From assembly GCA_017601265.1 (NCBI GenBank), contig JAFNJA010000005.1, forward strand, positions 1-33,013: 33,013 nt of DNA. Reading direction: 5' to 3'. This DNA is from Candidatus Brockarchaeota archaeon (GTDB lineage: Archaea; Thermoproteota; EX4484-205; DTQO01). Below the pieces are notes generated by a model. That model searched no databases. It had not been told where the DNA came from and saw only the letters and a list, made by a program, of their open reading frames with translations. The position numbers were made by a program, and so were the translations under genes. This document shows, piece after piece, positions 13,926 through 21,066 of this stretch. The number at the start of each line of letters is the position of its first letter. Within the stretch, counting starts at the first letter, position 1.

Positions 13926-15374
13926 TTGAGGGCCCTCGGAATCGACGTCGGGACCACGAGCGTGAAAACCGCTATCTTCGACACCGAACGAGGGCTCGTC
14001 GACCATTCGGCGGTAGACATCTCGAGCCTGACGAGGCGCCCCGGGCCGAACTTCGCGGAGAGGAGCGCGGACGAGGTGTGGAGGAACGTCGCGAATGCTT
14101 TGCGCTCGATGGAGCACGCGCGGAGCGTTGAGGCGCTTTCGGTCGACGCGACAAGCGGGACTATAATAGCGGTCGACTCCAAAGGCTCCCCCATCTGCCC
14201 CGCCATCTTGTACGCCGACAAGAGGTCCCATAAAGAGGCAGAGGAGGTCTTGGAGGCGAGCGAGAGCGCAAGGGAGTACCAAACCTTCCTCCCGGTCGAC
14301 GCAAGCCTCGTACTTCCCAAGGTTCTGTGGCTGAGGAGAAACCTGCGGGACTTCGGGAAGGTTTCAGGCATACTCCACGAAAGCGACTTCGTCGCCATGA
14401 AGCTCTGCGGGGTCGTAAGGACGAGCCCGAACGTCGCGGGGAAGTCGCACGTGGACGTCAGGTCAGGGAAATACCTCAAAAGCGTCTACGAGGACCTGAA
14501 AGTTCCTTTGTCCCTCATGCCTCCCATAGCGGAAGTCGGGGACGTCGTGGGCTTCGTCACCGAATGCGCCTCGGCCGAGACCGGGTTGCCCGAGGGCATT
14601 CCGGTGGTCAACGGGGTCACGGACGCGACCGCGGGGGACGTCGCCACCGGGACCCTCGAAAAAGGCCAGCTCAACGCCACGATCGGCACGACCCTCGTCG
14701 CGCACGCGGTCGTGGACGAGCCGGTGCCGGACTCGAAGAAACGCATCTACTACAAGACCTTCCTCGGCCCGACTTACCTGGCCGGGGGCGCGACGGACGC
14801 GGGCACGCTCCCGCTCGACGCCGTCTGCGCCGCTTTCCGCCTCAGCTTGGGCGACCTCGACCTGGCCGCGTCGAAAGTTCCAGCCGGCTGCGACGGGCTC
14901 TTGGCGCAACCCCAGTGGACCGGGACGAGGGTTCCGGACCACAACCCGGACGTGCGCGGGTTCTTCATCGGCTTGACGGCCAAGAACTGCACCCCAGGCC
15001 ACATCTTCAGAAGCCTTCTCGAAGGGAACGCGGCCGTACTTTCCGAAGTCATCGGGATAATCGAAAGCGTCACGAGAGTCGGCATAAAGGAGGTGAGGGT
15101 TTGCGGAGGGGGTTCGAGGAGCGACGTCCAGAACCAGATCGTGGCCGACATGACGGGCCTCGAGGTTTTGGCGCTGGAGAACGTGGAGGCCGCGGCCGGG
15201 TCCGCCTTGATCGCGGCTTGGGGGGCTGGAGGAAAAAGGGACATCGGCAAGCTAGCGGCCAAGGCAGTGAAGCCGAGGAGGAAGTACTTTCCGCGGGAGA
15301 ATCTAGCAGAAATTTACCGAAGCCAAAGGGACCTCCTCCGCGACCTTACGGCCAGGATATACGGCAAACGCTGA
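13926..15374 (+). CDS. FGGY-family carbohydrate kinase (xylulokinase/ribulokinase-like).
   Basis: 482 aa. TTG start is preceded by GAGG. The N-terminal motif is LGIDVGTTSVKTAIFD. C-terminal motifs are VCGGGSRSDVQNQIVADMTG and AAGSALIAAWG. Confidence 0.85.
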   Translation: MRALGIDVGTTSVKTAIFDTERGLVDHSAVDISSLTRRPGPNFAERSADEVWRNVANALRSMEHARSVEALSVDATSGTIIAVDSKGSPICPAILYADKRSHKEAEEVLEASESAREYQTFLPVDASLVLPKVLWLRRNLRDFGKVSGILHESDFVAMKLCGVVRTSPNVAGKSHVDVRSGKYLKSVYEDLKVPLSLMPPIAEVGDVVGFVTECASAETGLPEGIPVVNGVTDATAGDVATGTLEKGQLNATIGTTLVAHAVVDEPVPDSKKRIYYKTFLGPTYLAGGATDAGTLPLDAVCAAFRLSLGDLDLAASKVPAGCDGLLAQPQWTGTRVPDHNPDVRGFFIGLTAKNCTPGHIFRSLLEGNAAVLSEVIGIIESVTRVGIKEVRVCGGGSRSDVQNQIVADMTGLEVLALENVEAAAGSALIAAWGAGGKRDIGKLAAKAVKPRRKYFPRENLAEIYRSQRDLLRDLTARIYGKR

Positions 15375-15437: not shown

Positions 15438-16553
15438 ATGCCCTGTCCGCTTTCCCCCGGGGGGAAGTTGGGGCCGGGCGCGGAAAAGCGGGAGCGCTTC
15501 AGGCAAGTCGCTAGGGAAATCGCGGCCAAAATTTCCGCGAAGAAGGAAATAGTGGGCGTTTTCCTCTTCGGCTCCGCCGTAAGCGGAGGGTCGGACGAGG
15601 AGAGCGACGTGGACGTCGGTTTGGTTTACGGCGGCTCAAGAATCCGGGAAGGAAGGGAAGAAAGGCGCATCGAGGGAATCCGCGTGGACGTCTGCCACTA
15701 CCCCGCTTCCAGGTTCTCCGGCGTCTTCGAATCCGAAAGCATGCGCGGAAAGCGGGACACCTGGTTCAACGCGAGCTTATGGCTGGGTCTGATGAGGGGG
15801 TGCGAGATAATAGAAGACCCCCTCGGCCTCTTGAGGAGGTGGAAGGAGGCGGCCCTGAGCTGGAAGTGGAGGGAAGGCGAGATCGAGCACCTCGAACTGG
15901 CCTACCTCAAGAACCTGTCCGCTGCCAACCTGTTCATCGAAGAAAAGAGGGTCCTCGAAACGCTGGTCTTCCTGAGGGAAGCCCTTGGTGCTGCCGTTTG
16001 CGCCCGCCTGATGAGGAGCAACCTCGTCCCTTACTGGGATCCCAGGTTCCTCTACCGCAGCATCGTCTCGTCCTGCGAATTGGCGGGATTGCGCGGATTT
16101 TACGAGCGCTTGAACGACCTTGACGCGGTCGATGCCAGTCTCCTGAGGTCTCTCCTGAAAAAGTTGAGGTTCTACGTCGAAAGGGAGGGGGAAAAAAGCT
16201 CGGGAGTTGCGACGCACTTCCACAACGCCCTGGACGGTTACTGGAGGCGCCAATACGCTTCGGCCCTGCTCTCGGCCCGGCTTTCGGCGTTCCTTCTCGC
16301 GCCAAGGGTAGTTTACGGTCCCTCCGCGAGCCTTCCGCCCCTGGCGGACAGGATCTTGGACGGCGGGCAGCACGTCGAAATGATAAAGAAGCTCGAAGGA
16401 TCCGATAAAGGCTTCCACGGATTTTACCTCAACCTGCTCTTCGTCGAAAGGTGGAAACTGGAGGCGCTTCGAGGCGCTTTAGATGCCCTCTGCGCAATAA
16501 GCAATGGCAAGAAGGGAGGCCTGAAGACGCCGTCCCGTCAGGAGGAAACTTAA
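15438..16553 (+). CDS. Pol-beta-superfamily nucleotidyltransferase domain protein with a helical C-terminal region of about 270 aa.
   Basis: Minimal NTase motif GVFLFGSAVSGGSDEESDVDVGLVY (GS...D.D). The rest is predicted helical, with no motif I can name apart from an R-x5-H (REGEIEH). Confidence 0.7.
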   Translation: MPCPLSPGGKLGPGAEKRERFRQVAREIAAKISAKKEIVGVFLFGSAVSGGSDEESDVDVGLVYGGSRIREGREERRIEGIRVDVCHYPASRFSGVFESESMRGKRDTWFNASLWLGLMRGCEIIEDPLGLLRRWKEAALSWKWREGEIEHLELAYLKNLSAANLFIEEKRVLETLVFLREALGAAVCARLMRSNLVPYWDPRFLYRSIVSSCELAGLRGFYERLNDLDAVDASLLRSLLKKLRFYVEREGEKSSGVATHFHNALDGYWRRQYASALLSARLSAFLLAPRVVYGPSASLPPLADRILDGGQHVEMIKKLEGSDKGFHGFYLNLLFVERWKLEALRGALDALCAISNGKKGGLKTPSRQEET

Positions 16554-16620: not shown

Positions 16621-17595
16621 TCACAAAGGCAGCCTCGTCCCGATTCCTTTCGAAACCGCCTTGCGGTACAGCCTGATCGCTGTTGCCACGTCCTCTATCG
16701 CCAAGCCCAGGTTGGCGCACACTATCCTTTGCGCCTCGTCCTCCCTTCCGGCGACCCTCCCAGCCAGAAGATCCCCGAGGTCGCCGATCGGTTCGGGAAC
16801 ATTCTTGAAGTAGCCGGAATTCCTGTAGTACCTGAACTGCTCGAGGTCGTCGGTGAAGAACTTGTCCGCCGCCCTGAAAGCTCCCGGGGTGACGTAAGAA
16901 TCGAAATCAAGCGTGCAGACGAAGCTGCCGGGCGACAGCCACCCTTCCTCTATCGTGGGCTTCGGCTCCTTAAGTATCGGCCCAGCCGTAACGACGATGT
17001 CCGCTCCCTCGACCGCGTCCCTCGGGTTGGAAACCGCCTTCACGGAAACGCCTATCGGGGCCATCTCCCTCGCGTACTTCTCGGCCTTCTCCGGCAGGAT
17101 GTCGTAAGCCCTCACTTCCACCATCGCTGGGAAGAACGCCTTCAGGGCCGCGAGGTTGCTCCTTCCCTGGACGCCGCAACCGAGGACTCCTAGTGTCTTG
17201 GAATCGGCCTTGGCCAGGTGCTTGGCCGCAACCGACGTGGCCGCGCCCGTCCTTACCGCCGTTATCCACGTGCAGTCCATCACGGCGATCGGGACGCCGG
17301 TCTCAACGTCGTTGAGCACGAGCAGTCCCGTGACGTAAGGCAACCCCTTCCTGTAGTTCTCCGGATACCCCCCAACCCACTTTATTCCCGCTGCCCCCAG
17401 CTCTGGTATGTATGCGGGCATGGCGTGTATGAAAGCGTCGGGCCGCGTGTGTATCCCGGGCTTCGGAGGCATCTCCACCCTTCCAAGCGCCTTCTGGAGT
17501 ATCGCTTCTTGGACGGCTTGCGCGACCTCTTCGATGCCCATTCCGACTTCCTCGATGTCCTTCCTAGAAAGGTAAAGGATCTCCCTGCCCTGCAT
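16621..17595 (-). CDS. Ornithine cyclodeaminase / mu-crystallin family NAD-dependent enzyme (archaeal alanine dehydrogenase-like).
   Basis: 324 aa. ITAVRTGAATSVAAKHLA and the Rossmann motif LGVLGCGVQGRSNL give the typical OCD/mu-crystallin layout. Confidence 0.82.
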   Translation of the reverse strand: MQGREILYLSRKDIEEVGMGIEEVAQAVQEAILQKALGRVEMPPKPGIHTRPDAFIHAMPAYIPELGAAGIKWVGGYPENYRKGLPYVTGLLVLNDVETGVPIAVMDCTWITAVRTGAATSVAAKHLAKADSKTLGVLGCGVQGRSNLAALKAFFPAMVEVRAYDILPEKAEKYAREMAPIGVSVKAVSNPRDAVEGADIVVTAGPILKEPKPTIEEGWLSPGSFVCTLDFDSYVTPGAFRAADKFFTDDLEQFRYYRNSGYFKNVPEPIGDLGDLLAGRVAGREDEAQRIVCANLGLAIEDVATAIRLYRKAVSKGIGTRLPL

Positions 17596-17728: not shown

Positions 17729-18214
17729 TCAGGCTAGGTGGCCGAGTTGCGCCCTGTCGAAGTCCCTCACGATCTCGAATTCCCCGGTGAACCTGCTTTT
17801 TACGCCGGCGAACTCCGGAAAGAACGCCAACGGGCCTGGGGGGGAGCACATCCTCGCCGACGCGTGGCTTTCCCCGAACGACTTCCTCGCGACGTTCAGC
17901 GCGATCCGCCTCGCCTCCGCTTCGTCGACGTAGCCCAGCGAGTGGAGGTACTCGTGGAGGAGGACGCTGTAGACGAAAGCGTTCTTCTCCCTCCGCGTCC
18001 TGGGGCTTTTCTCGACCGCTTCCAGCAGAGCCTTGTTGACCACTATCGAATTCGAACCCACTTGGTGGAAAGCCCCGACGTTGGCGGGAAGGTTTGCGAG
18101 GTAGAGGGACAGCCCCGCCCTGCGCCTCCCAATTACTTGGTAGACGGACCTCTTCACGATCTCGAAGACATCCCCGAAGTCCTTGCACCTGTCCAGCTCT
18201 TCGGCCAGCGCCAA
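17729..18214 (-). CDS. Small putative zinc metalloprotease with a single HExxH motif (SprT/Wss1-like zincin candidate).
   Basis: 161 aa. TTG start is preceded by GGGGAGGGG at -8. SIVVNKALLEAVEKSPRTRREKNAFVYSVLLHEYLHSLGY contains the HExxH. It is the last gene of the cdc48 operon. Confidence 0.6.
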   Translation of the reverse strand: MALAEELDRCKDFGDVFEIVKRSVYQVIGRRRAGLSLYLANLPANVGAFHQVGSNSIVVNKALLEAVEKSPRTRREKNAFVYSVLLHEYLHSLGYVDEAEARRIALNVARKSFGESHASARMCSPPGPLAFFPEFAGVKSRFTGEFEIVRDFDRAQLGHLA

Positions 18215-18238
18215 TCCGAACCCCTCCCCGAAGCGCGG

Positions 18239-18661
18239 TCAACCGCCCCTCCTGAGCTCCCTTTCGATCTCTTCCATCACCCTGCGCGTCGCCGCGCACA
18301 TCAGGATGCTGGCGAACCCGAGCCGCGAAAGCCTGTAGTGGACGTTCCGGGGGTGCCTCTCCACCCTCTCAACCAAATCGTTCTTGATCATCTTCTGCAA
18401 GGCGTCGTAGATTATCTTCTGGTTGGCGTCAAGCTCCTCCATCAGGTCCGTGAACCTCGGATCCGATCTCTTGGTTATCTCGCAGAGCATCTTGATCCTC
18501 GTCCTGTTCGAGTAGAGGTCGTGGAGAGCCTCTATTTCGCCTATCTCCTCCTCTATCTCCTCCATCTCCTCTTCGAGCCTTTTTTGGTCCCAGTCGTGCA
18601 TCCCGAGTGGCATCTCGAAGATGACCTTGTCGTCCTTTACCAGCTGGAGCTTCAGTCCCAT
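18239..18661 (-). CDS. ArsR-type winged-helix DNA-binding protein with an N-terminal extension and an acidic helix.
   Basis: 140 aa. The C-terminal half (LYSNRTRIKMLCEI...FTDLMEELDANQKIIYDALQKMIKNDLVERVERHPRNVHYRLSRLG) fits an ArsR/wHTH. The N-terminal 55 aa include EEEMEEIEEEIGEIE. The ATG lies 10 nt after the cdc48 stop. Confidence 0.7.
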   Translation of the reverse strand: MGLKLQLVKDDKVIFEMPLGMHDWDQKRLEEEMEEIEEEIGEIEALHDLYSNRTRIKMLCEITKRSDPRFTDLMEELDANQKIIYDALQKMIKNDLVERVERHPRNVHYRLSRLGFASILMCAATRRVMEEIERELRRGG

Positions 18662-18671
18662 CTTTCTCGAC

Positions 18672-20918
18672 CTAGACCAGCTCGACCGTTTTGAGCGCTT
18701 CGGTCCTGCCCTTCTTGGCCGTTTGCCCGATCATCGCTTCGTACCTCGCCCTTTCCTGCGGCGTCGAGACCCTCACCTTGCTCATCGCCTGCTCGATGTG
18801 CCTCAAAGATATCTTTAGGCTTCCCAGGTTTTCTTTCGCGTTTTCCGGAGTCCCAGACCGAGCCAGCAGCTCCCTTATCGCAAGGAGGCCCGCCTCGTTG
18901 CACACCTCCTCGATGTCAGCCCCGCTGTACCCGTCCATCCTCTTCGCGAGCTCCGAGATGTCAACGTCGACGTCGAGGGGCTTGTTCCTCAAATGTATCC
19001 TCAGGATCTCTTTCCTGGACTCGAGGTCCGGCCAACCCGTCGTGAGCACCTTGTCGAACCTGCCCGCCCTGAGCAGGGCCGGATCTATCATGTCCGGCCT
19101 GTTCGTCGCCCCTATGACAACCACGCCCCTCAGCGATTCCAGGCCGTCCAGCTCCGTCAGGAGCTGGCTTATGACGCGCTCCGTGACGCCGGAATCTCCG
19201 AACCGCGATCCCCTCGTGGGAGCTATCGCGTCTATCTCGTCGAAGAAGATTATGCAGGGCGAGGCCTGCCTCGCCTTCCTGAAGATCTCCCTCACGCCCC
19301 TCTCGCTCTCGCCCACCCACTTGGAGAGGAGCTCGGGCCCCTTGACCGAGATGAAGTTCGCCTCCGACTCGGTCGCGAGCGCCTTCGCGAGCAGGGTCTT
19401 GCCCGTTCCGGGCGGGCCGTAGATCAGTATCCCCTTCGGTTGCCTTATGCCCGCCTCTTTGAAGAGCTCCGGGTACTTCAAAGGCCACTCTATCGAGGAG
19501 ACGAGCTCTTGCTTGACCGCGTCCAAACCGCCGATGTCCGACCAACGGACGTTCGGGGACTCGATCATCACCTCCCTCATCGCCGAAGGTTCGACCTCCT
19601 TCAGGGCTTCTTCGAAGTCCCGCATCTGGACCACGATCTTGTTCAAAACCTCGGCCGGGATGCTTTCAACCTCCAGGTCGAGCTCCGGTAAAACCCTCCT
19701 AAGGGAGCGCATCGCAGCCTCCTTCGCCAGGGCCTCCAAGTCCGCGCCGACGAAGCCGTGCGTTATGTCTGCCAGCCTCTTCAGGTCGACGTCCTTGCCA
19801 AGCGGCATGCCCCTCGTGTGGATCTGCAGTATCTCGAGCCTTCCAGCCTTGTCGGGAATCCCTATTTCGATCTCCCTGTCGAACCTGCCCGGCCTCCTGA
19901 GAGCGGGATCGAGGGCGTTGACCCTGTTCGTGGCCCCGATCACGACGACCTTTCCCCTCGCTTGCAGGCCGTCCATCAGCGCGAGCAGCTGCGCCACGAC
20001 CCGCTTCTCGACCTCCCCCGTGACCTCCTCCCTCTTGGGCGCTATGCTGTCAAGCTCGTCGATGAAGATTATGCTGGGGGCGTTCTCCTCAGCCTCCTTG
20101 AAGATCTCCCTGAGCCTCTGCTCGCTCTCCCCGTAGTACTTGCTCATGACCTCCGGGCCGCTTATGCTTATGAAGTGCGCGTTCGTCTCGTTGGCAACGG
20201 CTTTGGCGAGTAAAGTCTTGCCCGTTCCGGGCGGCCCGTGCAGCAGCACCCCCTTGGGCGCCTCGACGCCCAGCCTCTCGAAAAGCTCGGGGTGCCTCAG
20301 CGGGAGCTCCACCATCTCCCTGACCTTCTGTATCGCGTCCCTCAGGCCCCCTATGTCCTCGTACGTTATCCTCGGAACCGCCCTCGCCGTCGCCGCGTAG
20401 ACCTTCTCGCTGATCTTCATGACCGTGTCCTCGTTCACTATGACGGCGTCCGCCAAAGGCTGGTAGGCGGTCACGACGAGGTTTATGGCCCTGCCCATGA
20501 TCCTCACGGGGACGGAGTCCCCTTTCGCTATTATCCTTCCGGTGAGCATGTTCTTCACGTATTCCTCCCCGCCGACTATCCTCAGGGGTTCGGTGGGGGC
20601 CAGCGTGACGCTTTGCGCGTACTTCGCCGATATCTTCCTGATCCTGACCTTGTCGTCGATGCTCACGCCCGCGTTTTCCCTGATGTAGCCGTCTATCCTG
20701 ATCAAACCCTTGCCGGCGTCCCTCGGGTGGGCGGTCCAGCAGAGGGCGAAGGTGCGCCGCTTGCCGAAGATCTCGATCGCGTCGCCCGCCGATATCTTGA
20801 GCCTCTCGGCGACCTCGGGATCGATCCTCGCTATGCCCCGGCCGACGTCTATCGATATGGCCTCGGAGACCCTCAAAATCGCGTGGGGCGCTCCTTTCCT
20901 ATCGTACCCCTCGCTCAC
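18672..20918 (-). CDS. cdc48: CDC48/VCP/p97-type tandem AAA+ ATPase.
   Basis: 748 aa. The N-domain is [22 protein letters not shown]...[11 protein letters not shown]. There are two Walker A motifs ([17 protein letters not shown] and [17 protein letters not shown]) and two Walker B motifs ([16 protein letters not shown]). GTG start with GGAGG at -9. Confidence 0.95.
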
Positions 20919-21066
20919 GACCGTTTCCTCCGAAAGTTTTTATGCCTTCCTTGCTGAATGAAGTAGCAACGCCAGGTTTTAACTTTATCTGAAACGCGGT
21001 CCGCAACCCTTTAGCAGCCTCTAGGCGCCCATATATAGGTAATTGGGACTTTTTATTATTGGAAAC

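Follow-up and report, generated by a model that had tools for sequence, protein, structure and literature searches.

The window analysed here is a 33,013-nt stretch of DNA from a Candidatus Brockarchaeota archaeon (assembly GCA_017601265.1, contig JAFNJA010000005.1, positions 1 to 33,013). On its minus strand lie three closely packed genes, encoding a Cdc48-type ATPase (18672-20918, 748 aa), a winged helix-turn-helix (wHTH) protein (18239-18661, 140 aa) and a 161-aa protein with a HExxH motif (17729-18214), which we call the mini-zincin. We consider that this locus is probably a heat-shock (proteotoxic-stress) operon, part of a regulon of the type controlled by the archaeal regulators Phr and HSR1, with the mini-zincin as a core member. 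The original prediction, made from the letters of this DNA, had proposed that the three genes may be an archaeal counterpart of the proteolysis of DNA-protein crosslinks by the SprT-like proteases Wss1 and SPRTN acting with Cdc48.

In relatives of the window, a palindrome with the sequence GTTAC-N5-GTAAC was conserved upstream of the regulator (wHTH) gene, immediately before the TATA box, and many regulator loci carried a second copy between the TATA box and the start codon. About 29 exact copies of the palindrome were observed in related loci totalling 923 kb, compared with an expectation of about 0.9, and nearly all of these exact N5 sites were at approximately -43 and -10 from the wHTH start codon, i.e., flanking the TATA box. 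The regulator exists in two forms, a short form of ~140 aa (as in the window) and a long form of ~250 aa with an N-terminal domain. Loci encoding the short form had the same GTTAC and GTAAC arms with a 6-nt spacer (N6), and spacer length matched regulator form without exception: all 31 sites at long-form loci were N5, and all ten sites at short-form loci were N6. This perfect co-variation argues that the wHTH protein itself reads the palindromes. The operator flanked the TATA box before the regulator gene in about 30 genome loci, and in 20-27 metagenome loci among the matches listed. In these relatives, the regulator thus appears from the sequences to control its own expression via a palindrome at its own core promoter.

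The same operator was found in front of other genes. Metagenome contigs were scanned for two palindromes 12-24 nt apart (20 specified bases), yielding at least 120 sites, and sites were kept if the orientation of the TATA box was unambiguous and there was a called open reading frame (ORF) within 80 nt. Among the matches listed, TATA-oriented dual-operator promoters preceded genes encoding the regulator (20 sites), Hsp20 (ten), Cdc48 (six), the HExxH protein (three) and others (three); sites before hsp20 came to 10-11 overall, and two further dual-operator sites preceded DnaK (Pfam HSP70, 702 bits). The HExxH and cdc48 genes stand alone in these operator-bearing metagenome loci, so the link between them is one of co-regulation and goes beyond adjacency. 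In reference genomes, the operator occurred twice before hsp20 in a locus with no adjacent regulator (L046 in our numbering of loci). In L012 it was also located 20 nt before the HExxH gene, and L022, with an HExxH-cdc48 pair that lacks a regulator, had it at the same coordinate. Recurrent ORFs of 128 aa and of 154-158 aa divergent from operator sites look like antisense artefacts. In one locus, a gene for an HtrA-like protease with Trypsin_2 and PDZ domains (L120:552-1781, minus strand) is divergent from a dual-operator regulator promoter, and may be a further member of the regulon in that lineage.

The surroundings of the mini-zincin gene were surveyed by calling and clustering ORFs in 80 of its reference-genome loci. 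The regulator was present in 28 of these, and in about 25 it preceded HExxH on the same strand by no more than two genes. An hsp20 gene was linked in 14 loci; in 12 of these it came immediately before HExxH, which placed it between the regulator and zincin genes wherever the regulator was present. Three of five tested products scored 33-49 bits against Pfam HSP20 (cut-off 20.8), the other two being just under the cut-off. The Cdc48 gene adjoined the zincin gene in five loci, being downstream of HExxH in L006, L012, L013 and L022 and upstream in L003. In a neighbour-joining tree of the zincins, these five loci and the Brockarchaeota clade were spread over no fewer than four distinct branches and displayed four gene orders (cdc48-wHTH-HExxH, wHTH-HExxH-cdc48, cdc48-HExxH and HExxH-cdc48). 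Neighbours in other zincin lineages included thioredoxin, beta-galactosidase, serine hydroxymethyltransferase and others. The recurrent companions of the mini-zincin are the regulator, a small heat-shock protein (sHsp) and Cdc48. That the regulator and sHsp are the commonest of these, and that dnaK shares the operator, points to protein quality control rather than to crosslink repair.

Several neighbours of the mini-zincin gene recurred within particular lineages. In the Nitrososphaerales loci L029, L037, L038 and L040, a thioredoxin gene (with a WCGPC motif) precedes it on the same strand at a distance of 25-94 nt, and is a further neighbour of a redox or proteostasis type. In 12 Bathyarchaeia loci (L039, L042, L049, L050, L053-L055, L058, L063, L069, L077 and L078; e.g., L049:6533-6811), the next gene after that of the zincin, in the same orientation, encodes a conserved protein of ~92 aa (MRLFGRKK...YEIFGGFTITK...) with no Pfam match. 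In ten others (L007, L008, L017, L020, L021, L025-L027, L032 and L041; e.g., L020:6474-8771), a convergent gene just downstream encodes the anaerobic ribonucleotide reductase NrdD, which bears an ArsR-like wHTH (DUF7347) at its N-terminus along with an ATP-cone.

The wHTH protein of the window was identified by Pfam and NCBIfam scans as a winged helix of the ArsR/TrmB type. When a profile built from both short and long forms (alignment A2) was searched against the whole Protein Data Bank (PDB), the best match was 2p4w (E = 3.8e-6), which is Phr of Pyrococcus furiosus (PMC4027180, PMC13286277). The next ArsR protein had an E value of 8e-4, about 200-fold worse. The NCBIfam Phr_regulator model also gave sub-threshold matches in seven of 19 regulator members (best E = 9.5e-6). 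By this similarity, the protein has an ArsR-like wHTH related to Phr and, by analogy, would be a Phr/HSR1-like autorepressor of the operon. Its AlphaFold2 model was poor (predicted local distance difference test, pLDDT, 59.5), and Foldseek returned generic ArsR, MarR and PadR proteins with E values of 0.17 or above; these results were not used as evidence. The window protein also scored 26.1 bits against Pfam HTH_Cmi2_C (PF24270; threshold 27), a domain that a precomputed protein-database table lists for it, and a literature search on Cmi2 found nothing relevant. As for the long form, its N-terminal domain of ~150 aa has no Pfam match but is conserved around ...D(V/L)xG...VFCE(T/I)... (e.g., L026:1754-2506 and L007:4609-5370, within loci L005-L068), and is possibly nuclease-like or a sensor. 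In alignment A2, the short form retains just the first beta-strand and one further segment of this domain.

Reviews name Phr and HSR1 as the sole heat-shock regulators known from archaea, with none described in the Crenarchaeota or the TACK archaea (PMC9133787, PMC10746257). The regulon of each is described as consisting of the regulator together with an sHsp and an AAA+ ATPase (VAT/Cdc48) (PMC10653856, PMC10746257). In two papers (PMC2396416, PMC9133787), the HSR1 operator is given as CTAAC-N5-GTTAG, lying downstream of both B recognition element (BRE) and TATA box at the hsr1 and hsp20-2 promoters; hsr1 is described there as being in one operon with hsp20, and the Phr site as TGGTAA where transcription starts, with TTTA and AAAA flanking it. 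The system described here resembles Phr (Pyrococcus/Thermococcus) and HSR1 (Archaeoglobus fulgidus) in having an ArsR-like wHTH regulator, which is an autorepressor there and probably here. It also resembles them in having a palindromic operator at the core promoter (here GTTAC-N5/6-GTAAC, often GGTAAC), a regulon containing hsp20 and an AAA+ ATPase of the Cdc48/VAT type, and a regulator gene in one operon with its targets. It differs from the two euryarchaeal systems in occurring in Thermoproteota (Brockarchaeota and Bathyarchaeia), in having a regulator that comes in two forms (~140 and ~250 aa) and is non-orthologous by NCBIfam score, in the sequence of the operator half-site, which is usually duplicated around the TATA box, and in the addition of the mini-zincin and sometimes dnaK to the regulon. 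While a heat-shock regulon of regulator, cdc48 and hsp20 was already known in Euryarchaeota, the zincin is a new member.

In the mechanism that we propose, the 140-aa wHTH repressor would bind GTTAC-N5/6-GTAAC just upstream and downstream of the TATA box, as suggested by the relatives. The bound repressor would block transcription initiation at its own promoter and at those of hsp20, cdc48, HExxH and, in some lineages, dnaK. Stress would release the repressor, leading to joint expression of the genes of the regulon. Damaged proteins would be held by the sHsp and unfolded or extracted by Cdc48, and the role of the 161-aa zincin, with its HExxHxxGxxxE motif, would be that of a peptidase, induced by stress, for unfolded polypeptides. 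In the lineage of the window, the regulon members cdc48, regulator and zincin are joined in one operon. The sequences themselves show the conserved order of the genes, the motif and modelled fold of the zincin, the operator with its location and its co-variation with regulator form, and the genes that follow it. Repression and responsiveness to heat are proposed here by analogy with Phr and HSR1, and the peptidase activity of the zincin is likewise proposed by analogy; its substrates are presumed, and that it is a stress peptidase is probable.

Some results weigh against this heat-shock reading, and those closest to home concern the promoter of the window. A putative BRE/TATA element, AGATAAAGTTAAAAC (20976-20990, minus strand), is conserved in L208, the nearest relative, as CAGATAAAGTTAAA; it lines up with the TATA boxes of L081 and L085 and is likely to be the promoter of the operon. 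The segment between this element and the start of cdc48 (20919-20975, minus strand) aligns with the operator-bearing segment of relatives, but contains no GTTAC or GTAAC half-site; indeed, none is recognisable in the 160 nt that precede cdc48, either in the window or in L208. A search of the cdc48 promoter of the window with both N5 and N6 spacers, tolerating up to 3-4 mismatches in the arms, yielded no convincing operator. The slightly more distantly related loci L081, L084 and L085 carry only half-conserved tandem sites, two copies of xTGGTxAAAAAGTAAC between the TATA box and the ATG codon; their right half equals that of the N6 operator. As the window promoter has no recognisable operator, we infer the regulation of its operon by homology. 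The remaining difficulties concern the two small proteins. With 52 of the 80 zincin loci lacking a regulator, the zincin is not strictly tied to the regulator by position. The window regulator scored 20.6 bits against the NCBIfam model for Phr orthologues (NF053602; cut-off 320), and its similarity to Phr is confined to the wHTH, the C-terminal dimerization domain not being aligned. All matches of the zincin to known families were non-significant (Pfam E of 0.001 or above, Foldseek E of 0.17 or above), so that its peptidase activity is putative, and mini-zincins of the selecase type can be latent.

Within the window, the structure of the operon was confirmed as originally described. ORF calling placed all three genes on the minus strand at the coordinates predicted, with cdc48 (GTG start) first, followed by the wHTH gene (ATG start) and the HExxH gene (TTG start). 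The gaps were verified as 10 nt between cdc48 and the wHTH gene (18662-18671) and 24 nt between the wHTH and HExxH genes (18215-18238). A Shine-Dalgarno-like sequence, GGGGAGGGG (18229-18221, minus strand), read directly from the DNA, is located 6 nt upstream of the TTG codon of the zincin gene; this start fits the N-termini found in homologues. JTT11_00845 encodes a product identical to the 161-aa protein. The cdc48-wHTH-HExxH trio recurred in the Brockarchaeota-like contigs L081-L087 and L208-L212, in several of which cdc48 is incomplete at the contig end. Because the genes flanking the retained trio vary among L081, L084, L085 and L208, the trio represents a conserved unit in the Brockarchaeota-like lineage and not a chance juxtaposition. 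The tight spacing and this conservation bear out the view that the three genes are one operon. On the opposite strand, a 318-aa ORF antisense to both small genes (17738-18694, plus strand) is most likely spurious, a product of the 60% G+C genome.

By its sequence, the product of the first gene is a bona fide CDC48/VAT double-AAA+ unfoldase. It scored 1078 bits against TIGR01243 (CDC48 family; cut-off 803), and Pfam recognized CDC48_N, CDC48_2 and two AAA domains with AAA lids. It ends in ...TVELV; the penultimate Tyr is absent, and with it the C-terminal HbYX motif, which is also mostly lacking from the other zincin-linked Cdc48 paralogues.

The mini-zincin belongs to a sizeable family. A word-indexed search gave 396 homologues, relatives were encoded in 374 genomes at species level, and an exhaustive profile search yielded 476 clusters at 50% identity. 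The last of these covered 1.84 billion representatives, and among the best 150 hits listed (down to about E = 1e-25) the family was self-contained. The genomes are mainly those of Bathyarchaeia, but also of Caldarchaeales, Wolframiiraptor and Nitrososphaerales. No model in Pfam or NCBIfam covers the family. Nearly all members are single-domain proteins of ~160 aa; N-terminal extensions in some members are of low complexity and are not conserved, which rules out fused domains as their explanation.

The window protein has one HExxH only (LLHEYLHSLGY, with H87, E88 and H91), and the motif is invariant in the family. It forms part of a longer active-site motif, H87-E88-Y-L-H91-S-L-G94-Y-V-D-E98 (17921-17956, minus strand), i.e., HExxHxxGxxxE. 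H87, E88, H91, G94 and E98 were invariant in 40 sequences, as were R32, G34, H50, N55, N60, H117 and D151; in 93 sequences, the five motif residues were invariant or at least 90% conserved. The third zinc ligand is presumed to be E98 (+7), with H117 (+26, invariant in alignment A1) as an alternative. An AlphaFold2 model (pLDDT 87.9, predicted template modelling score 0.86) has an N-terminal helix, a small sheet (strands 36-40 and 56-60) and an active-site helix (74-92) with HExxH at its end, followed by a Gly turn and then by a helix that begins at E98. Searched against the PDB with Foldseek, this model gave 37 matches, all weak, the recognizable ones all being zincins. The top match was selecase (4qhg; probability 0.97, E = 0.17, TM-scores 0.38/0.53, with 0.53 over the target), and others were BepA (M48), TTHA0227 (2ejq) and LTA4H. 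Neither the single zincin nor profiles A1 and A4 found more than chance hits (thrombin, L20) in HMMER searches of PDB sequences. By motif and modelled fold, the 161-aa protein is a zincin-type metallohydrolase, having the general features of MEROPS clan MA.

Selecase, proabylysin (4JIU) and projannalysin are minigluzincins, which, like the present protein, are small (~110 aa), soluble, single-domain archaeal zincins. They differ from it in that there is no detectable sequence similarity, the Foldseek E value for selecase being 0.17 only, and in that the present protein is 50 residues longer and has another presumed third ligand (HExxHxxGxxxE). In proabylysin, a C-terminal tail blocks the active site and causes auto-inhibition (PMC5557861). 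The present family also has a conserved C-terminal tail, ending in Y-[ILFV]-x, with Tyr in the antepenultimate position in 116 of 117 full-length homologues. The sole exception was the window protein, which has His there (...GHLA, 17732-17740); the proteins closest to it have ...SYLA at this end. The His may be a genuine substitution, or a variant introduced in sequencing or assembly. In the model of the window protein, the tail (residues 156-161, ...QLGHLA; 17732-17749, minus strand) is disordered, with a pLDDT below 50. By analogy with proabylysin, one may speculate that the conserved Y-I-x tail is a latency or docking element. Among the contigs bearing the zincin, three are in unexpected bins, L021 and L072 in a bacterial one ('Candidatus Acidiferrales bacterium') and L056 in a DPANN one ('Aenigmatarchaeota'); L021 is likely mis-binned, because its context is typical of Bathyarchaeia.

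Resemblance to SprT-like proteases, on which the original prediction had been founded, was traced in the sequences and in the models. The window zincin scored 12.9 bits (E = 0.099) against the SprT-like family PF10263, for which the cut-off is 25.6 bits. PF10263 was also sub-threshold in four of 40 and in eight of 93 members (best E = 0.0019), and WLM (PF08325) gave zero matches in scans of the window zincin, the 40 and the 93 members, so that neither family was reached at threshold. The commonest sub-threshold Pfam match was instead Zincin_1 (PF06262), found in 19 of 93 members (best E = 0.001), against eight for SprT-like. Neither SPRTN nor Wss1 was among the 37 PDB matches listed above, although in a Foldseek search of viral models (BFVD), SprT-like phage proteins appeared as weak matches (E = 0.2-2.4) alongside M48 and lethal-factor-like proteins. 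A third zinc-ligand His is found at about +6 in Wss1 and about +15 in SPRTN. In the present family, 22 of 117 members had a His 5-16 residues after HExxH; it is not conserved, and the window protein has none. Scans with regular expressions for the Cdc48-binding motifs of 117 zincins found SHP in one, and VIM and VBM in none; across the zincin and wHTH families, such scans for SHP, VIM, VBM, PIP and HbYX were negative. All zincin family members examined were single-domain, with no DNA-binding module, and their median isoelectric point was 6.05 (acidic to neutral), compared with 8.97 for the window protein.

These results bear on the model in which the mini-zincin is a Wss1/SPRTN-like crosslink protease working with Cdc48, the wHTH protein binding DNA in trans. 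The likeness to SPRTN and Wss1 consists of a small HExxH domain, a strand-helix layout before the active-site helix and the genetic link to Cdc48, which is genuine. WLM and SprT domains are structurally close to minigluzincins (PMC4559962, PMC5557861), and a protein of the latter type, selecase, was the top PDB match. Since the literature places WLM and SprT there, the resemblance is real as one among minimal zincins generally, but membership of either family is not supported. Unlike SPRTN and Wss1, the present family lacks the third His, SHP, VIM and PIP motifs, and modules binding DNA, ubiquitin or SUMO. The wHTH protein, for its part, appears to be an autoregulator with a defined palindromic operator in relatives, a role that replaces the DNA binding in trans formerly assigned to it, and the regulon partners are hsp20 and dnaK and not repair genes, i.e., a context of heat shock and not of DNA repair. 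The functional link between Cdc48 and the protease thus survives in the form of conserved co-regulation (recurrent adjacency and a shared operator), and the zincin-type fold and motif also stand, but we regard a system dedicated to DNA-protein crosslinks as very improbable.

A different role for the Cdc48 link would be that the mini-zincin docks on the hexamer of the stress-induced Cdc48 paralogue, possibly via its Y-I-x tail, and as its dedicated peptidase partner degrades the unfolded substrate, making the pair an archaeal analogue, in split form, of FtsH, in which an AAA+ module and an M41 zincin are fused, or else an analogue or forerunner of eukaryotic Cdc48-Wss1/SPRTN. Such a two-component protease would act on damaged proteins generally, and would fall within the heat-shock reading as a special case. 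It would fit with the tight operonic adjacency of zincin and cdc48 on at least four branches and in four gene orders, with the operator that they have in common, and with the absence of HbYX from most of the linked Cdc48 paralogues, while the disordered, conserved Y-[ILFV]-x tail of the zincin could be the docking peptide. Yet Cdc48 is adjacent in just five of 80 genome loci, both genes stand alone in metagenome loci, the SHP, VIM and VBM motifs are not present, and the tail is no HbYX motif (the Tyr is antepenultimate) and in the window protein lacks that Tyr. Co-regulation by itself accounts for the linkage, and we consider a dedicated Cdc48-zincin protease unlikely.

The frequent pairing of zincin and regulator genes raises another possibility, that the zincin is the switch of the regulon and not one of its effectors, cleaving the adjacent wHTH repressor on stress as in ImmA/ImmR or IrrE/DdrO. 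No gene neighbours that of the zincin more often than the regulator (28 of 80 loci), which is usually directly upstream on the same strand. Pairs of a repressor and a protease are a common architecture, and to our knowledge the means by which Phr-type repressors sense heat is not known. In ImmA/IrrE systems, too, a small HExxH protease gene is found beside the gene for the repressor of a stress regulon. They differ from the present system in their repressor, which is of the Xre type and not an ArsR-type wHTH, and in their protease family: Peptidase_M78/ImmA-IrrE (PF06114) was not among the Pfam hits at E of 1 or below in 133 member scans. Moreover, the regulator is missing from 52 of the 80 loci, and in many genomes the present protease gene stands alone behind its own dual operator, as other effectors do. 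An anti-repressor function is, in our judgement, improbable.

Finally, the protein might be a hydrolase of the zincin fold with some other substrate, such as an RNase like YbeY with a part in ribosome quality control, or a stress protein with no catalytic activity. YbeY was matched below threshold in five of 93 members, and its motif, HGxLHLxGYDH, resembles HEYLHSLGYxxE; YbeY has Gly, however, where HExxH has its catalytic Glu, which is invariant in the present family. The proteins that match best in structure are also peptidases. Zincin_1 (Acel_2062, 3E11; TTHA0227, 2EJQ) has the motif HExxHxxGxxD, with the same Gly turn, but in the present family the acidic ligand is a Glu and one residue further (HExxHxxGxxxE), all scores for Zincin_1 were below threshold, and Zincin_1 is a bacterial family. 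Several mini-zincins of solved structure have no demonstrated activity, and in Zincin_1 proteins a C-terminal Tyr has been discussed functionally (PMC3890501). We give little credence to a function other than proteolysis, and retain the stress-induced peptidase of the heat-shock reading as the probable one.

On this heat-shock reading, a Phr/HSR1-like regulator family, with a sharp dual operator and a compact regulon, can be defined from sequence in Bathyarchaeia and Brockarchaeota, and a widespread zincin family with no Pfam assignment (476 clusters) would gain its first functional context. The system raises the questions of how the heat-shock response is wired in abundant uncultivated archaea, of what degrades heat-damaged proteins in archaea without FtsH and Lon-type partners of Cdc48, and of whether Cdc48-coupled metalloproteolysis predates eukaryotes. 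If the unlikely case of a dedicated Cdc48-zincin protease were true, the split module would represent an ancestor-like state of Cdc48-coupled metalloproteolysis in archaeal relatives of eukaryotes.

Downstream of the operon in the window are genes for an ornithine cyclodeaminase/alanine dehydrogenase-like protein, a nucleotidyltransferase-like protein and an FGGY sugar kinase (15438-16553, plus strand; 13926-15374, plus strand; and 16621-17595, minus strand). This block is syntenic in most of the Brockarchaeota-like relatives.

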